Source: Longimicrobiales bacterium (GTDB lineage Bacteria > Gemmatimonadota > Gemmatimonadetes > Longimicrobiales > Gaopeijiaceae). Taken from it: DNA of 64,000 nt. The stretch's first letter is position 1. Each line of letters starts with the position of its first letter. The notes beneath the pieces were generated by a model. The model made no database searches. It was not told where the DNA came from and saw only the letters and a program-made list of their open reading frames with translations. This document shows positions 51,499 through 58,951 of this stretch, piece after piece. The stretch covers positions 2,656,001 to 2,720,000 of the forward strand of contig CBDAON010000004.1 in the NCBI GenBank assembly GCA_965198065.1. The letters are read 5' to 3'. Both the position numbers and the translations under genes were made by a program.

Positions 51499-51716
51499 AT
51501 TGTGCCGTAACCCTCGGGTACGGAGTGGTAAGGATGGCACAGGGGCAGGGAAGAGGACCCGAGAGTTTGGCTCAACCGTACCATACTAGTACACAATAGT
51601 ACCACGTCGCTAGTACGGCGTTGACGGACTGCAAATCCTCTATCCCCGGTTCGAATCCGGGCGGCGCCTCTAGGGTCAAACAGCAGATACCGGAAAGACT
51701 TACGTAAATAGCGGAG
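51499..51716 (+). repeat. att-like repeat 1 containing the 3' half of tRNA-Cys(GCA) (51626-51670)
   Basis: GGACTGCAAATCC...CCCGGTTCGAATCCGGGCGGCGCCT without a 5' half; about 220 bp similar to 57244-57462. Confidence 0.85.
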
Positions 51717-53715: not shown

Positions 53716-54666
53716 ATGACGCGGCTTCGCATGGTCCCATTCGGGGTGGCGCTCGCGTTCTTCGTTTGGGGTGGCACGTGCCCGGCAGACTTGGAGGCGC
53801 AACGGCCGAATCTTCCCCTTCAGCCGCGGCCGGGGGGCGACTACTTCATCATCCCCGTCATGGAGGGGTGGTACGACAACGGCGACGGGTCGATTACGGT
53901 CTCGTTCGGCTACCTCAATCGGAACGATGAAACCGTCGAGATTCCGTTAGGCGAGAACAATTTCATCGAGCCGGCCAGCTTCGGCGGGATGCAGCCCACC
54001 GTGTTTGAGCCAGGCCACGAACGAATCTTCACGGTGACGGTCCCGGCCGACCTGGCACAGACGGGCATCTGGTGGACGATTCGCTCGTTCGGAGACGAGG
54101 CGCGCGTGCCGGGCCGGAGGGTGGTACCTGGCTACGAGCTGGACAAGCGTCCGCTACCCAACGGCGCGATGGCTCCCCTCGTTTATTTCGAGGAGGGTGG
54201 AGAGGTGGGCCAGTACCCGTCGGGCGTCATGGCGAGGACTGTGGAGAGGGTCAGGGTCGGCGAGCTTCTGACCCTCACGCTGCACACGAGTGACACGGCC
54301 GTGCGGACGCCGTACCAGCGTTCCACGCCCTCGGAACCGCCCACCGTGAGGGTGGCGTGGGTGAAGCACCAGGGGCCGCCGGGCGAGATCGAGTGGGTCC
54401 GTCACCCGTCGACCCCCGTCCCGGAAGAGCCGGCCGATGCGCCGCCCGGAGGTGGCAGGGGTCGTGGGGGCGGTCAGGGCGGCCAGGACGAGCCCCCACC
54501 ACCGAGCGAGATCGAGCTTCCGACCGGAGGGGGAACGGCTCTGGTGCAGGCCCGCTTCCCCGCTCCCGGGGAGTACCTGCTTCGGGCCCGGGTCAACCCC
54601 TCGGACGCCGGCGGGGGTCAGTGCTGCTGGACAAACGGGTACGTACGAGTCAACGTGACGCCGTAG
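53716..54666 (+). CDS. Secreted hypothetical protein
   Basis: RBS AAGGAG; signal peptide; PVMEGW, FGYLNRN, C-terminal CCWTNGYV. Confidence 0.8.
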   Translation: MTRLRMVPFGVALAFFVWGGTCPADLEAQRPNLPLQPRPGGDYFIIPVMEGWYDNGDGSITVSFGYLNRNDETVEIPLGENNFIEPASFGGMQPTVFEPGHERIFTVTVPADLAQTGIWWTIRSFGDEARVPGRRVVPGYELDKRPLPNGAMAPLVYFEEGGEVGQYPSGVMARTVERVRVGELLTLTLHTSDTAVRTPYQRSTPSEPPTVRVAWVKHQGPPGEIEWVRHPSTPVPEEPADAPPGGGRGRGGGQGGQDEPPPPSEIELPTGGGTALVQARFPAPGEYLLRARVNPSDAGGGQCCWTNGYVRVNVTP

Positions 54667-54693
54667 CAAACCTTCAGCGTTTCGTGGCTTCTC

Positions 54694-54729
54694 GACGCGG
54701 CGGGCTGCGGCCCGCCGCGTCTCTTTTTT
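54694..54729 (+). terminator. Rho-independent terminator
   Basis: GACGCGGCGGGC-TGCG-GCCCGCCGCGTC followed by a T tract. Confidence 0.85.
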
Positions 54730-54859
54730 GCACGCCCGACAGGGGGAAACGGGACCGACCGAGTCAGGCCGAAGGGGGAAAGATGGGGATTATAACCTTA
54801 ACTTGACAGACCAACAAGTTAGCGGCTATTCTTTCTAGTAGAGCAAAGGAGATGAAAGA

Positions 54860-55778
54860 ATGGCCGGAAAAGCCTACCGCGAAGGGATCACCCTCGCACA
54901 GTTGACCAGCCTGTTTCCCAATGAGGAAGCGGCTACCGAGTGGTTCGAGAGCAACGTATGGGGCGGCGAGCGATGCTGCGGGCATTGCGGCAGCCTCAAC
55001 ACCAAGCTGGTCCCCAATGCGAAGCCGATGCCGTACTGGTGCCCCGATTGCCGGAAGTATTTCAGCGTACGCACCGGAACGGTCCTGCGTCGCTCGCACA
55101 TATCGCTCCAGGACTGGGCCTTCGGGATCTATCTCGAAGTGACGAACCTCAAGGGCGTGTCCAGCATGAAGCTGCACCGCGACCTGGGGATCAGCCAGAA
55201 ATCAGCATGGCACATGCTCCACCGCATCCGCGAGACGTGGGCCCCGTTGCGCGAAAGCTTCGCTGGCCCTGTCGAGTTCGACGAGACCTACATCGGCGGG
55301 AAGGAAAAGAACCGGCACGCGAGCAAGCGCCAGGATCTGGGGCGTGGCCCCGTGGGCAAGACGGCGGTCGTCGGGGCGAAAGACAGGGCGACGAACCGCG
55401 TGAAGGCCCGCGTCGTCAAGCATACGGACGGGCCGACGCTTCATCGTTTCGTCCGGGCCAGCGCGGAAGACGGCGCGAAGCTCTACACGGACGACGCTGC
55501 TGCCTACAAGGGCCTAGAGAACCACGAGACGGTCAAGCACTCGGGTCCGTGAGTACGTCAACGGGATGGCCCACACGAACGGCATAGAGAGTTTCTGGTC
55601 GATGCTCAAGCGCGGATACTACGGGGTCTACCACAAGATGAGCGAGAAGCACCTGCAGCGCTACGTCAACGAGTTCGCCGGCCGCCACAACATGCGCGAG
55701 ATGGACACCATCGACCAGATGCGCCACGTCGTCTCCGGGATGGTTGGGCGGCGCCTCATGTACCGGGACCTGGTCTAG
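54860..55778 (+). CDS. IS1595-family transposase (frameshift near 55545)
   Basis: Zn ribbon [46 protein letters not shown]. Confidence 0.92.
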
Positions 55779-55925
55779 GATGCCGAAGAAGGAGACGCCG
55801 AAGACTGGTAACCCGTTCTACCGAGGCGCCAGCCCCGAGGAAGTTGCGCGCGCACTCCTCCAGCGCGCCCCCCCGAAGAAGCCGAAGGCCAAGCCCGACC
55901 CCCCGAAGGAGCGAAGCCCCGACGA

Positions 55926-55954
55926 TTGACCCTACCGAAGAAAATACGTAGGAT
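55926..55954 (+). promoter_or_regulatory. sigma70-like promoter facing the RNA cargo
   Basis: TTGACC-17 nt-TAGGAT. Confidence 0.65.
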
Positions 55955-56113
55955 GGAGAAGCGCCCGGCGGGGGCAAAACCCGTCCGGGCGCTTACAACT
56001 CGTAGGCCGTTAGCAACCCCGAGACAGCAGTGGACTGGGCCCGAGACCCTCACAACGGGTGAAGGACTGACGGCTGCGGGCTGTACTAGTATATAAGTGG
56101 GAAAGGGAGAAAA

Positions 56114-56190
56114 GCCCCTGTAGCTCAAGTGGATAGAGCAACCGATTTCCGACCGGTAGGCTGCGGGTTCGGGTCACCCGCCGAGGGGCA
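56114..56190 (+). tRNA. Atypical tRNA-like gene 1 (Arg-like body, UCC in anticodon position)
   Basis: GCCCCTG..TAGCTCAAGTGGATAGAGC D-arm; ACCGA-TTTCCGA-CCGGT; GCGGG-9 nt loop-CCCGC; 3' strand CGAGGGGC-A. Confidence 0.7.
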
Positions 56191-56220
56191 CACCCCTTTC
56201 AGAGCAAAGTGGAAAGACAC

Positions 56221-56289
56221 GGGCCGCGAGCCGGGTCCAGGATGGCCTCTAAAACCATATCCTGCGGGGTTCGACTCCCCGGCGGTCCA
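56221..56289 (+). tRNA. Atypical D-armless tRNA-like gene 2 with CUA anticodon and Ala identity
   Basis: Acceptor GGGCCGC/GCGGTCC plus A73; T-arm CGGGG-TTCGACT-CCCCG; loop CTCTAAA. Confidence 0.7.
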
Positions 56290-56386
56290 TGCCTCCCCAC
56301 CCTGGAAGCTATAACAGGCGATGTCGCACGTGTCAAGCTCGTAAGTCCTGCCTGGCGTGGTAGCTACAGCCAGCGTCTCCGGTTTT

Positions 56387-56896
56387 CTAGCACTGCCCGC
56401 TCGTGTCCGGATTGAACAGTTCCCAGTGCATCGAGCCGGTGTATATGGGTCCGACCACCGCCAGCAAGTCACCCCTTACAGGTTTCCGCAACCCTTCAAG
56501 TTCGCGGCCGGGAGCGTGTAGAGACTGGGTCCGCGTGATGGTACGCGCTCCGTAGGACCGGTCCACCTGTTGATCTCGGAAGAACAACTCGGCTTCGTTG
56601 CCGGAAACATTCGGGTCAATCATCGTCAGTGTTTGCAACCCCGGGTCCCACTCCCACCGGAACGTGATCGCGGTTCGGCAACCACCGTCGCGGGCAACGC
56701 CATCTCCGTCCGGGTAGACCCAGACTAGGTACAAACCATTGTCACGGGTACCTTCCCGCTTTGTCCAGTCCCAGACACCCACAGGAGATAATGGCTCAAC
56801 AACCTCCTCCGGATCCGGACCCTGGCTGGCGGCTTGCATGGGAAACGTACAGAAGCAATAGAGAAGCAATGCAAGACCGATTCGTTCTCTGTACAT
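56387..56896 (-). CDS. Secreted hypothetical passenger protein of the IS1595 element
   Basis: ATG after GAGGGAGGGGG; signal-peptide-like N-terminus. Confidence 0.65.
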   Translation of the reverse strand: MYRERIGLALLLYCFCTFPMQAASQGPDPEEVVEPLSPVGVWDWTKREGTRDNGLYLVWVYPDGDGVARDGGCRTAITFRWEWDPGLQTLTMIDPNVSGNEAELFFRDQQVDRSYGARTITRTQSLHAPGRELEGLRKPVRGDLLAVVGPIYTGSMHWELFNPDTSGQC

Positions 56897-56960
56897 GGTT
56901 CCAACCCCCCTCCCTCGTGACGGTTGCGGTCCCGGCTGCCCGCAATGGCGCCGGGCCATT

Positions 56961-57090
56961 GCAAACAGTCTCTCGGAGAGAGGAAAGTCCCCGCCTATTT
57001 GCCCAGGCGCGGGGAGCTACCCCGGCCAAGCATTCAGGCTGTTGTATTCAGCGGGTAACCCGACTTCAGGGTCCCCGAAAAACTGTTTGC
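56961..57090 (-). ncRNA. Predicted 130-nt structured RNA / leader (three-way junction)
   Basis: 19-bp closing stem with three G.U pairs on the minus strand; starts just after TTGACA-17-TATCGT formed with the right IR. Confidence 0.65.
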
Positions 57091-57243
57091 GTGGGAAACG
57101 ATACAGCGGGATGGCTACGGTGTCAAGTTAAGGTTATAATCCCCGGAAAGATTCCCATCCGGCGAGACAACTCGCGAAGCGAGCGCAGGATCCACACCAC
57201 CACCGCACCGAAAGGGCGTCAGCATGCCGTAACCTGTGCCGTA

Positions 57244-57462
57244 ATTGTGCCGTAACTCTCGGGAACAGGGTAGTAAGGATGGCACAAGGGCAGGGAAGAG
57301 GACCCCGAGGATTATGGCTCAACCGTACCATCTAGTACACAACGGTACCACGTTGCTAGTACGGCGTTGACGGACTGCAAATCCTCTGTCCCCGGTTCCG
57401 AATCCGGGCGGCGCCTCTTGGGTTGAACAGCAATACTACGATGACTTATGCAAACGGCAGAG
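57244..57462 (+). repeat. att-like repeat 2 containing the 3' half of tRNA-Cys(GCA) (57372-57417)
   Basis: Homologous to 51499-51716; preceded by tandem TGTGCCGTAA motifs. Confidence 0.85.
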
Positions 57463-57514
57463 GGCCGTCCAGGCTCCTCTGCTGAGTCGTTTTGTGCTGC
57501 TTGTTGCGAGCGCC

Positions 57515-58951
57515 GAGTAATCCCAAAGTTAGTTGAAACTGGAGCGGCCTCCGTCTCAGGCGACAGCATGTGAACGGCTCTCGGGAAGGGTGATCCCGAG
57601 GTCCTTCTGGATCGCGGCCCTGAGGAGCGGGAGGTGTCGGTACCCGAGCAACCTCCGGAGCCGTGACTAGATCTCCAGGAGCGTGGTCGCGAGCCATCGG
57701 TGCTTCTGGCTCGAGTTCTTCCAGTGGTCCACGCGTCCGCACCTCTGCTCGGCCAGGGCGTTCACGGACTCGAGCACGTTGGTGGTCTTGAGCGACTGGC
57801 CGACCAGGGGGAAGACTCCCAACCGGTGGAGGGTGAGGGTCTCCTCGAACCCCTCATCGAGACTGGCCGCCGCGGACTGGTTCACCCCCGCGAGCTCCTG
57901 GCGCAGGGCCTTGAGGTCCTTGACGGCCTCTTCGTACGTGGGCCGCTGGTAGGCGCGCTGCAGACGCTGGCGCCAGCCCTTCTGCTCCGCTCTCGGCAGA
58001 TACGAGATCACGTTCTTCCGCTTGTGCCACTGGCACCGCTGGATGAGCACCTGTCCCTTGAAGACCGCCAGGACGCCGCTCCGGAGACCGCGGGCTCCAT
58101 CGATCACCACGAGCGCTCCGGCCGACAGGTCGAGACCTCGGTCCTTCAGACTCCGAAGGAAGGATCGGATCACCACGGCGTTCTCCGTGTCGGTCTGGAC
58201 GAACCCGAGGAAGACCTTGTCCCCCTTGGTCGTCACCCCGAGCGCGACGACCATCTCGTCCTCGGCAAAGCTCTTGCCGTCCAGGACGAGTGCCACCCCA
58301 CGTCGTAACCCGAGAGGTCCCGCTCCTGAAACTCCTTCAGCTTCGCGGCCGTGGCCTTCTTGAACTCCCGCGAGACCGTCGACTTCGACAGCCCGATGGC
58401 TCCAGGCACCGCCTCGACCGCTGCCTCGTAGTCCCGGCACGAGATCCCGAGCAGCACCTTCCGAAACAGCCCCTCGTCCATCTCGCCGGGCGAGCCATGC
58501 AGCTGCTCATACGCCGCCAGCCTCGACTCTCCGGCCGGGCCTCGCACACCCAGGGTCGGTGCGGTTGGGCGGCCAGCGGCATCCGGTGCGAGTACCGCGG
58601 GTTATGCCCATGCCGGTAATGTCGATCGTCCTCGGTCTTCCTGGCGTGACGTGTTGCCCCGCCAGTTGCTCCACTTCCTCCTCGAGCATCCGGCCCACCT
58701 CCGCCAGTCCCAGCGGAATCAGCTGCCGGATCAGCTCCACCCGAGGGTCCAGCTCCAGCGCCTCGATCTCCTCCCAACTCACCTCCCTCGGTTCCCCGAG
58801 CCGCCGGTCCTTCTTGCCCCGCTCGACGAGCCTTGGCATCCTTCCCATCGGTGGCCCTCCTTCCTCTCTTGTGATCCCGTGGTGTGGTCGCACACCCACG
58901 TTACCTGAGGTTGGAGGCCGCTTCAATTTCAACTAAAGATGGGACTCACTC
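57515..58951 (-). mobile_element. IS256-family element, full length, transposase multiply frameshifted
   Basis: Imperfect IRs GAGT(A)ATCCCAAAGTTAGTTGAAA / GAGTGAGTCCCATCTTTAGTTGAAA; 8-bp TSD CGAGCGCC; LDG, IDG, QRCQWHK, TTN..ES. Confidence 0.93.

Follow-up and report, generated by a model that had tools for sequence, protein, structure and literature searches.

This analysis concerns a 64-kb stretch of DNA from a Longimicrobiales bacterium (contig CBDAON010000004.1), referred to here as the window, in which an insertion sequence of the IS1595 family, 2360 bp in length (54785-57144), carries a cassette of two tRNA-like genes in addition to its transposase and a protein passenger. The insertion sequence itself is ordinary and broken, and the principal finding is the second gene of the cassette (gene 2; 56221-56289, + strand, 69 nt), which is not decayed junk, but a real, covarying and mobile mini-tRNA with the marks of an alanine tRNA. 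Covariance models recovered 27 copies of this family in 20 genomes from at least four phyla, and while the alanine end is conserved across the family, the anticodon is variable.

Structure of the mini-tRNA

Gene 2 has an acceptor stem of 7 bp, which includes the pairs G1-C72, G2-C71 and G3.U70 and is followed by A73, and this stem is joined directly to a D-arm of 10 nt. There is then a long bulged anticodon stem with the loop CUCUAAA (anticodon CUA, A37) and a T-arm without any variable loop, and all the acceptor and T-stem pairs are kept, together with the length of the family. The original prediction had described two tandem tRNA-like genes, both of which are in place, but gene 2 was detected neither by default ARAGORN nor by the Rfam tRNA model, and the folding of both genes is no better than that of their shuffles (z about -0.5); gene 2 is taken as a structured RNA given the covariation in its relatives. 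BLAST searches with gene 2 returned only matches of 19-32 nt, in 7 of 48 genomes, while no match covering 80% of the gene was found in plasmids and phages, and a pattern scan of viral sequences returned only two CUA tRNAs of ordinary shape.

The mini-tRNA family

The relatives were collected using three covariance models. The model R1, built from one sequence and used with a loose cut-off, matched 34 of 151 and 12 of 48 genomes; 11 of these matches were inspected, two of which (L120 and L153) had the shape of gene 2 and nine of which were ordinary tRNAs, and the second match in genome G484 failed. The model R2 matched 4/151 genomes, two of them known and two new, and 1/151 (G612, unpublished). 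With the model R3, the first set gave matches in 9/151 genomes, two of which were discarded as fragments of selenocysteine tRNA (tRNA-Sec), and the second set gave matches in 11/151, of which four genomes were kept, while one tRNA-Sec fragment and six matches of 37-39 bits (five of them uninspected) were discarded. Further sets gave 2/80 genomes, one of them new, and 3/151. The total is made up of the 24 copies that remained after three tRNA-Sec fragments were discarded and three later copies, with ten copies (tandem arrays and singles in five genomes of one genus) being counted as one lineage. Between 33 and 106 candidates were scored per genome, so that the family counts are lower bounds.

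The stems of these RNAs covary. In the first five sequences aligned, 13 of the 23 pairs change on both sides, and in 25 distinct rows, among them the three tRNA-Sec fragments, of an alignment fitted to the model, 18/23 pairs are double-changed and 95.3% of the cells are paired, a value that was reached by none of 500 shuffles. Slid controls likewise fell far below the pairing of the family alignment, and compensatory changes are present in all four stems.

All 24 true copies have the G3.U70 pair, A73 and, in the D-region, a GG (a constancy that is partly circular, as discussed below); their lengths range from 67 to 71 nt, and the three later copies have the same marks and encode CCA. The third pair of the T-stem (51-63) is G-C in 25/25 rows; a G-C pair at this position tightens the binding of EF-Tu. 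In two papers (PMC5389517, PMC7609411), G3:U70 is described as the main recognition element of alanyl-tRNA synthetase (AlaRS), an enzyme that the host encodes.

The anticodon loop, on the other hand, varies. A 7-nt loop with U in the second position, at the expected distance, was assigned in 21 of the 24 copies, a U33 count that is set by the search rule. Ten of these loops have the triplet UGA, mostly in the arrays, whereas CUA, UUA and UGG occur twice each, and UUG, UAC, CGA, AUC and UCU once each; the alanine anticodon UGC was found in one later copy. Position 37 is C in 12 of the assigned copies, U in one, G in four and A in four, and the four copies with stop anticodons (CUA and UUA) all have a purine there.

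Genomic setting of the family

Outside the genus with arrays, 11 of 16 loci lie in or beside transposases of the IS1595 or IS1 families. In five of them (the window, L158, L165, L200 with two copies, and L211), the mini-tRNA lies inside a complete IS1595 element that has terminal inverted repeats (IRs) and 8-bp duplications, while it adjoins an IS1595 transposase or IR in three (L164, L205, L212) and an IS1-family transposase in three (L156, L197, L201). No transposase is adjacent in the other five loci (L166, L191, L198, L199, L213). The recurrence proposed as a check in the original prediction is thus borne out, as the tRNA-like cargo is also carried by unrelated IS1595 elements, with stems that covary.

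The transposases of the four IS1595 carriers compared are 35-53% identical to that of the window, and in a tree of 68 transposases the five carriers are scattered. At 65 loci with related transposases, besides the window, the model R3 gave no convincing match, its one match of 25.8 bits (L098) being judged an ordinary tRNA. The idea that the mini-tRNA is intrinsic to the closest clade of transposases is thereby rejected, and, as the carriers are scattered and the nearest relatives lack the RNA, it behaves as an exchangeable cassette.

A number of other features were observed near these loci. In genus g78 (L192-L196), the mini-tRNAs form tandem arrays of up to three, with a spacing of 95 nt and loops that are mostly CUUGACA, with vapBC adjacent in at least two genomes and no transposase nearby. 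An open reading frame (ORF) of 137-280 aa ends just upstream of the mini-tRNA in L158, L165, L191, L197, L198 and L201, one of which has a weak DUF5343 match. In L158 and L165, a tiny ORF ending in Pro-Pro-stop lies just 3' of the mini-tRNA, and none was found in the element of the window; Pro-Pro-stop ends stall ribosomes.

Two further tRNAs were noted. A second IS1595-type element of the host genome (L112:1007-1109, - strand, equivalent to C3:57406-57508) has a tRNA of 103 nt with a variable arm of 31 nt, the anticodon UGG and a D-arm that we take to be of the Leu type. This element also has a DUF3800 gene and, just upstream (5') of this tRNA, a mini-ORF that reads Met-Pro-Pro-stop and is preceded by a strong ribosome-binding site. 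In genome G426 (L117:1492-1564, - strand), an 8/4-type tRNA with CUA, G3.U70 and its own promoter-like site and hairpin, with no transposase within 5 kb, is a candidate allo-tRNA-like amber reader.

The partner tRNA and the state of the cassette

The cassette begins with a promoter-like site (55926-55954, + strand, TTGACC-17-TAGGAT), identified by consensus match only, and a GC-rich hairpin at the predicted start of the transcript (55959-55994, + strand; fold z = -5.0). A structured RNA at 56000-56085 is unsupported (fold z = -0.07). Gene 1 (56114-56190, + strand) is an irregular tRNA with an Arg-type D-arm, the anticodon UCC followed by G, A73, a 9-nt T-loop and one bulged acceptor base. ARAGORN calls it tRNA-Gly(TCC), and its score of 32.8 bits on the Rfam tRNA model is the lowest among the 49 host tRNA matches above the cut-off, 47 ordinary matches scoring 49.8-76.1 bits. 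It resembles tRNA-Arg genes at a level of 75-78% identity and shares their D-arm. With its long T-loop, bulged acceptor, and Arg-type D-arm combined with UCC, it corresponds to neither a canonical tRNA-Gly nor a canonical tRNA-Arg, under the usual identity rules, and is an irregular tRNA-Arg-type partner that may be decaying.

The tandem pairing of a mini-tRNA with a second tRNA does recur. In L211, a similar irregular Arg-type tRNA lies just behind the mini-tRNA, and in L156, the mini-tRNA is paired with a long-arm tRNA with a CAA anticodon. One public sequencing run (X9) holds a variant of the pair found in the window, with 10 substitutions and 12 gaps, which is 6 nt shorter.

Given these irregularities, the family might be functional elsewhere and the copy in the window might be a decaying hitchhiker in a dead element, from which nothing useful is made. 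The shorter variant, the form and low score of gene 1, and the frameshifted transposase of an element that is single-copy in the genome would all fit this account, as would the rarity of UCC in combination with an Arg-type D-arm (1/313 other genomes of the bacterial family, and there in an ordinary-looking tRNA). It is nevertheless unlikely, considering that gene 2 is of family length and has kept every pair of its acceptor and T-stem, that the promoter-like site and hairpin of the cassette are in place, and that the irregular partner in L211 belongs to a complete IS1595.

Comparison with known systems

The printed work compared comprises PMC5389517, PMC7609411, PMC3941956, PMC5704250, PMC2996969 and PMC12189769. 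The closest in kind are the allo-tRNAs (Mukai et al. 2017, PMC5389517; PMC7609411), which, like the mini-tRNA family, are irregular, have G3:U70, include sense and stop anticodons, occur in tandem, and are found near toxin-antitoxin genes and a transposon-related ORF (PMC5389517). The defining combination of the alanine-type allo-tRNAs, i.e., G3:U70 with a non-alanine anticodon, was found in 24/24 copies, a result that is partly circular through the training of the model. The mini-tRNAs differ in architecture, however, given that the allo-tRNAs have an 8/4 or 9/3 form, a long variable arm and a long D-stem (PMC5389517; PMC7609411), whereas the family has a 7/5 form, 67-71 nt and a D-stem of 2-3 bp, and lacks a variable loop. 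In the supplement of PMC5389517, the mini-tRNA shape is seen neither in the tRNA0 rows nor in two tRNA2 rows, and the word "Transposase" is absent.

The tRNA-Pyl of the seventh-order methanogens (PMC3941956, PMC7609411) shares with gene 2 the CUA anticodon, a very short D-loop, the lack of a spacer between the acceptor and the D-stem, and a long broken anticodon stem. Gene 2 differs in having A73 rather than G73 and G3.U70, in lacking the 3-nt variable loop, and in the varying anticodons of its relatives. A pyrrolysine system is rejected on the grounds of A73 and of the failure to find pylS in the host genome (87.6% complete), where the best match to TIGR02367 reached 28.5 bits, against a cut-off of 178.

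The transporter insertion sequences (tIS) of the IS1595 family (MTnSag1, tISCpe8; PMC5704250) resemble the element of the window in their DDE transposase, IRs of about 25 bp, 8-bp duplication and passengers. The tIS passengers in this source are protein genes, whereas the element of the window adds tRNA-like genes and has a frameshifted transposase. No family of Rfam 15 fits the mini-tRNA at threshold, and neither tRNA-like genes on IS1595 elements nor the mini-tRNA architecture turned up in a literature search that covered few subscription papers. The original suggestion that such cargo had not been described therefore needs to be narrowed, as Mukai et al. had presented irregular G3:U70 tRNAs and polycistrons in 2017, while it stands with regard to this architecture and to IS1595.

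Possible functions of the mini-tRNA

The reading that we tentatively favour is that the gene 2 family consists of mobile mini-tRNAs of 67-71 nt that would be charged with alanine and would weakly insert it at the codon matching their anticodon, here UAG. The transcript would begin at the site at 55926, after which the enzymes of the host would trim it and add CCA, the host AlaRS would recognize G3.U70 and A73 rather than the anticodon and charge it, EF-Tu would deliver it, and a low level of UAG read-through with alanine would follow. The AlaRS marks, the D/T elbow, the G-C pair at 51-63 and the anticodon-type loop all suggest that the RNA is charged and gets to the ribosome, where gene 2, with CUA and A37, would weakly suppress amber codons by inserting alanine. 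There are precedents. In E. coli, the residues that allo-tRNAs with G3:U70 placed at amber codons were chiefly Ala and Ser (PMC5389517), and a D-loop of 3-4 nt, together with a broken anticodon stem and the lack of a spacer, is known from the tRNA-Pyl of the seventh-order methanogens (PMC3941956).

A number of observations weigh against it. In gene 2 itself, the third pair of the D-stem is broken and CCA is not encoded, and the complete lack of a variable loop is unusual. A pyrimidine at position 37, which is poor for decoding, is found in 13/21 assigned loops, and, since harm is to be expected from the efficient insertion of Ala at Pro, Ser, Val, Asp or Arg codons, it may be that most of the family does not decode. 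Six allo-tRNA(UAU) variants linked to mobile DNA failed to decode in E. coli (PMC5389517). In addition, all the sequences used to train the models had G3.U70 and G51-C63, and the first three had stop anticodons, which, together with the model-fitted alignments, makes both the constancy of these marks and the frequency of stop anticodons partly circular. Alanine-inserting suppression is a prediction here. Among 22 public runs, none was listed as an RNA data set that contains this sequence, which speaks neither for nor against expression. The broader proposal that insertion sequences spread minimal alanine tRNAs with an exchangeable anticodon, which would place Ala at UAG, UAA, CCA, UCA and other codons, is doubtful.

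It is also quite possible that the mini-tRNA is an alanine-charged but non-decoding mimic, whether a decoy or spare substrate for toxins that cleave or modify tRNAs, or an RNA that enters stalled ribosomes in the manner of transfer-messenger RNA (tmRNA), in which case the anticodon would drift because it is not read. Altered decoding and a decoy role had both been among the options of the original prediction, and both are still plausible. This would account for the presence of at least nine triplets in 21 assigned loops and for the frequent C37, and Mukai et al. propose a non-translational role for mobile allo-tRNAs (PMC5389517). The neighbours include vapBC (L194, L196), AbiEi/AbiEii (L199) and RelE (L166), but toxin-antitoxin genes are common in mobile DNA anyway, these neighbour counts come without a background rate, and the element of the window has no toxin gene. 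The tRNA-like domain of tmRNA (RF00023) has the alanine marks, a reduced D-region, and a long helix in place of the anticodon arm, as in the mini-tRNA. Six relatives match it at 31-37 bits, below the gathering cut-off of 47, one group of arrays has the acceptor stem of its host's tmRNA, and the short Pro-Pro-stop ORF lies just behind the RNA in two IS1595 carriers. Gene 2 of the window has no RF00023 match, however, and the mini-tRNA has no tag reading frame, retains a 7-nt loop of the U-turn type, and has a covarying D-stem, which is missing from the Rfam tmRNA consensus. The host has its own tmRNA and SmpB.

The insertion sequence and its transposase

The element that carries the cassette is bounded by IRs of 24 nt (54785-54808, + strand, with TTGACA at its end, and 57121-57144, - strand) that are 100% complementary, and by an 8-bp target-site duplication, GGAAAGAT, at 54777-54784 and 57145-57152. 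When contigs of four public runs were aligned to 54400-57600, one of them (run X9) was found to link 54400-54776 directly to 57145-57515, which is the empty site. The repeats and the duplication are those expected of IS1595, and the passenger gene between the IRs is what characterizes a tIS; the element is putatively of the ISNwi1 subgroup. It is present once in the host genome, in which the transposase has 17 further tblastn matches, several of them with their own IRs, 8-bp duplications and passengers. Four promoter-like sites, at 54803(+), 55926(+), 57126(-) and 56767(-), were found in the element, against 0.8 +/- 0.9 in shuffles. The first (54803-54832, + strand, TTGACA-18-TATTCT, consensus match only) would serve the transposase, and inward TTGAC is characteristic of both IRs in this family, being found in 33/47 delimited relatives.

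Most of the original prediction for this unit holds, including its extent, repeats and duplication, to which the empty site is now added, the inward TTGACA of both IRs (54803 and 57126), the sigma70-like promoter at 55926-55954, by consensus match, and the probably secreted passenger and folded leader. The transposase is indeed of the IS1595 family, although its frameshift had been overlooked, while the cargo that had been called mostly non-coding RNA was overstated, given that coding sequence takes up 1579 of the 2360 nt, and the RNA-like parts named, four in number, total 332 nt. The parts of the element had been located, but the alanine marks had gone unnoticed, as had the nature of the leader as a common module unrelated to the tRNAs.

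The transposase (54860-55778, + strand) is split by one extra base near 55543 into a frame of 230 aa (54860-55552) and a second frame that ends in the TAG at 55776-55778. Both frames match PF12762 (DDE_Tnp_IS1595), at 69 and 54.7 bits, whereas the N-terminal zinc ribbon PF12760 reaches 16.9 bits, under the cut-off of 25.4, and the intact single frame of an autonomous IS1595 is lacking. An assembly artefact is ruled out by a contig from a second study (X3), which matches the window there without gaps, and all the relatives in which the motif was located stay in one frame at this position, so that this insertion does bear a true frameshift lesion. The element is, in sum, a passenger-carrying IS1595 with a frameshifted transposase and a two-gene tRNA cassette. 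A 49-codon ORF (55780-55929, + strand) has no Pfam match, and in a variant found in two runs, 25 other bases replace 55775-55917.

These defects raise the question of whether the tRNAs act for the transposase of their own element, with the amber reader extending it past UAG or gene 1 restoring its frame, which we consider very unlikely. The TAG stands where 30/43 relatives have Ala and 0/43 a stop, and where the two-run variant has an Ala codon, and four loop bases of gene 1 are complementary to the frameshift site. However, many relatives end one or two residues beyond the position of the TAG, so the extension is dispensable, and TAG is a common terminator in this genome (174/659 long ORFs). 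The transposases of an ochre carrier (L158) and an amber carrier (L156) both terminate at TGA, and suppressor gating is therefore not borne out in these two relatives. As for gene 1, a four-base reading would leave only one 3' loop base, and the transposase frame of close relatives is unbroken.

The leader and the probably secreted passenger

The passenger is an ORF of 169 aa with a hydrophobic N-terminus (56387-56896, - strand), which is likely secreted. It has six homologues, and it matched no Pfam family and no loci in metagenome contigs; the leads from an atlas search were weak, lipocalin-like and under 0.9, and structure prediction gave no usable fold (mean pLDDT, a per-residue confidence score, of 41). 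In front of it lies a structured leader (56940-57090, - strand), recognized by folding, profile and alignment, which has a core like that of sRNA-Xcc1 and a long partner-specific helix. The leader begins at about the start site predicted from the promoter-like site of the right IR (57098-57126, - strand, TTGACA-17-TATCGT, consensus match only) and folds well in comparison with shuffles (z = -5.7).

An iterated profile gave 23 matches to the leader among the loci compared and four in the host genome, and the ORFs behind these copies mostly have N-terminal stretches that, by eye, resemble signal peptides. The long helix varies in sequence, yet the own partner pairs best in 19/19 aligned copies (one of them mis-anchored), and it is crossed by a conserved six-base helix. 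Pairing of the leader with the ribosome-binding site of the passenger was rejected, as only 3/18 leaders paired best with the region downstream of themselves. The leader is thus a common covarying IS1595 module that precedes secreted passengers and is not tied to tRNAs, and in the best explanation the right IR drives leader and passenger as a module of their own.

Against sRNA-Xcc1 (RF02221), the leader scores 23.5 bits, below the cut-off of 53 (E = 0.6). The two are alike in the closing stem and the AAUACAA / GAAUA internal loop that form the core, whereas sRNA-Xcc1 has 88 nt and the leader about 150 nt, with the extra long helix crossing the closing stem. Going by a title of Chen et al. from 2011, sRNA-Xcc1 is reportedly found on mobile DNA.

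Other features of the window and the host genome

Within the element, an antisense promoter-like site read by eye (56308-56349, - strand, TTGACA-17-TATAGC) lies in a possible relic of an IS1595 inverted repeat. About 500 bp to the right of the element there is a fragmented transposase of the Mutator family (IS256-type; 57667-58932, - strand). A direct repeat of 190 bp (51500-51680 and 57230-57420), which ends in the 3' half of a tRNA-Cys, brackets the region that holds the element, with ten further partial copies in the genome; they resemble either the attachment scars of an island or a repeat derived from a tRNA. A similar tRNA-tail repeat, with three copies of the 3' half of tRNA-Arg(CCG) in 12 kb, is found at C4:1880213-1891934 of the same genome, and 18 tRNA genes are clustered in 2.4 kb at C4:1710874-1713237. 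Finally, a group II intron fragment lies directly outside the end of a related IS1595 (L039:4798-4877).

Implications

According to current views, the geometry of bacterial tRNAs is narrowly constrained and the passengers of insertion sequences are proteins. Both views are put to the test by an alanine-marked, covarying RNA of 69 nt that lacks a variable loop and is mobile, with IS1595 and IS1 elements of several phyla as its carriers. If the doubtful broader proposal of exchangeable anticodons were true, each element would bring a small change in the genetic code, mistranslation would be a mobile and selectable trait, and the mini-tRNA would be a natural ultra-small suppressor scaffold. If the mini-tRNA does decode, mobile DNA can alter the way in which its host reads codons, and the scaffold may aid the engineering of the code, whereas, if it does not, it would be a widespread mimic of charged tRNAs and a candidate defence against toxins that attack tRNA.

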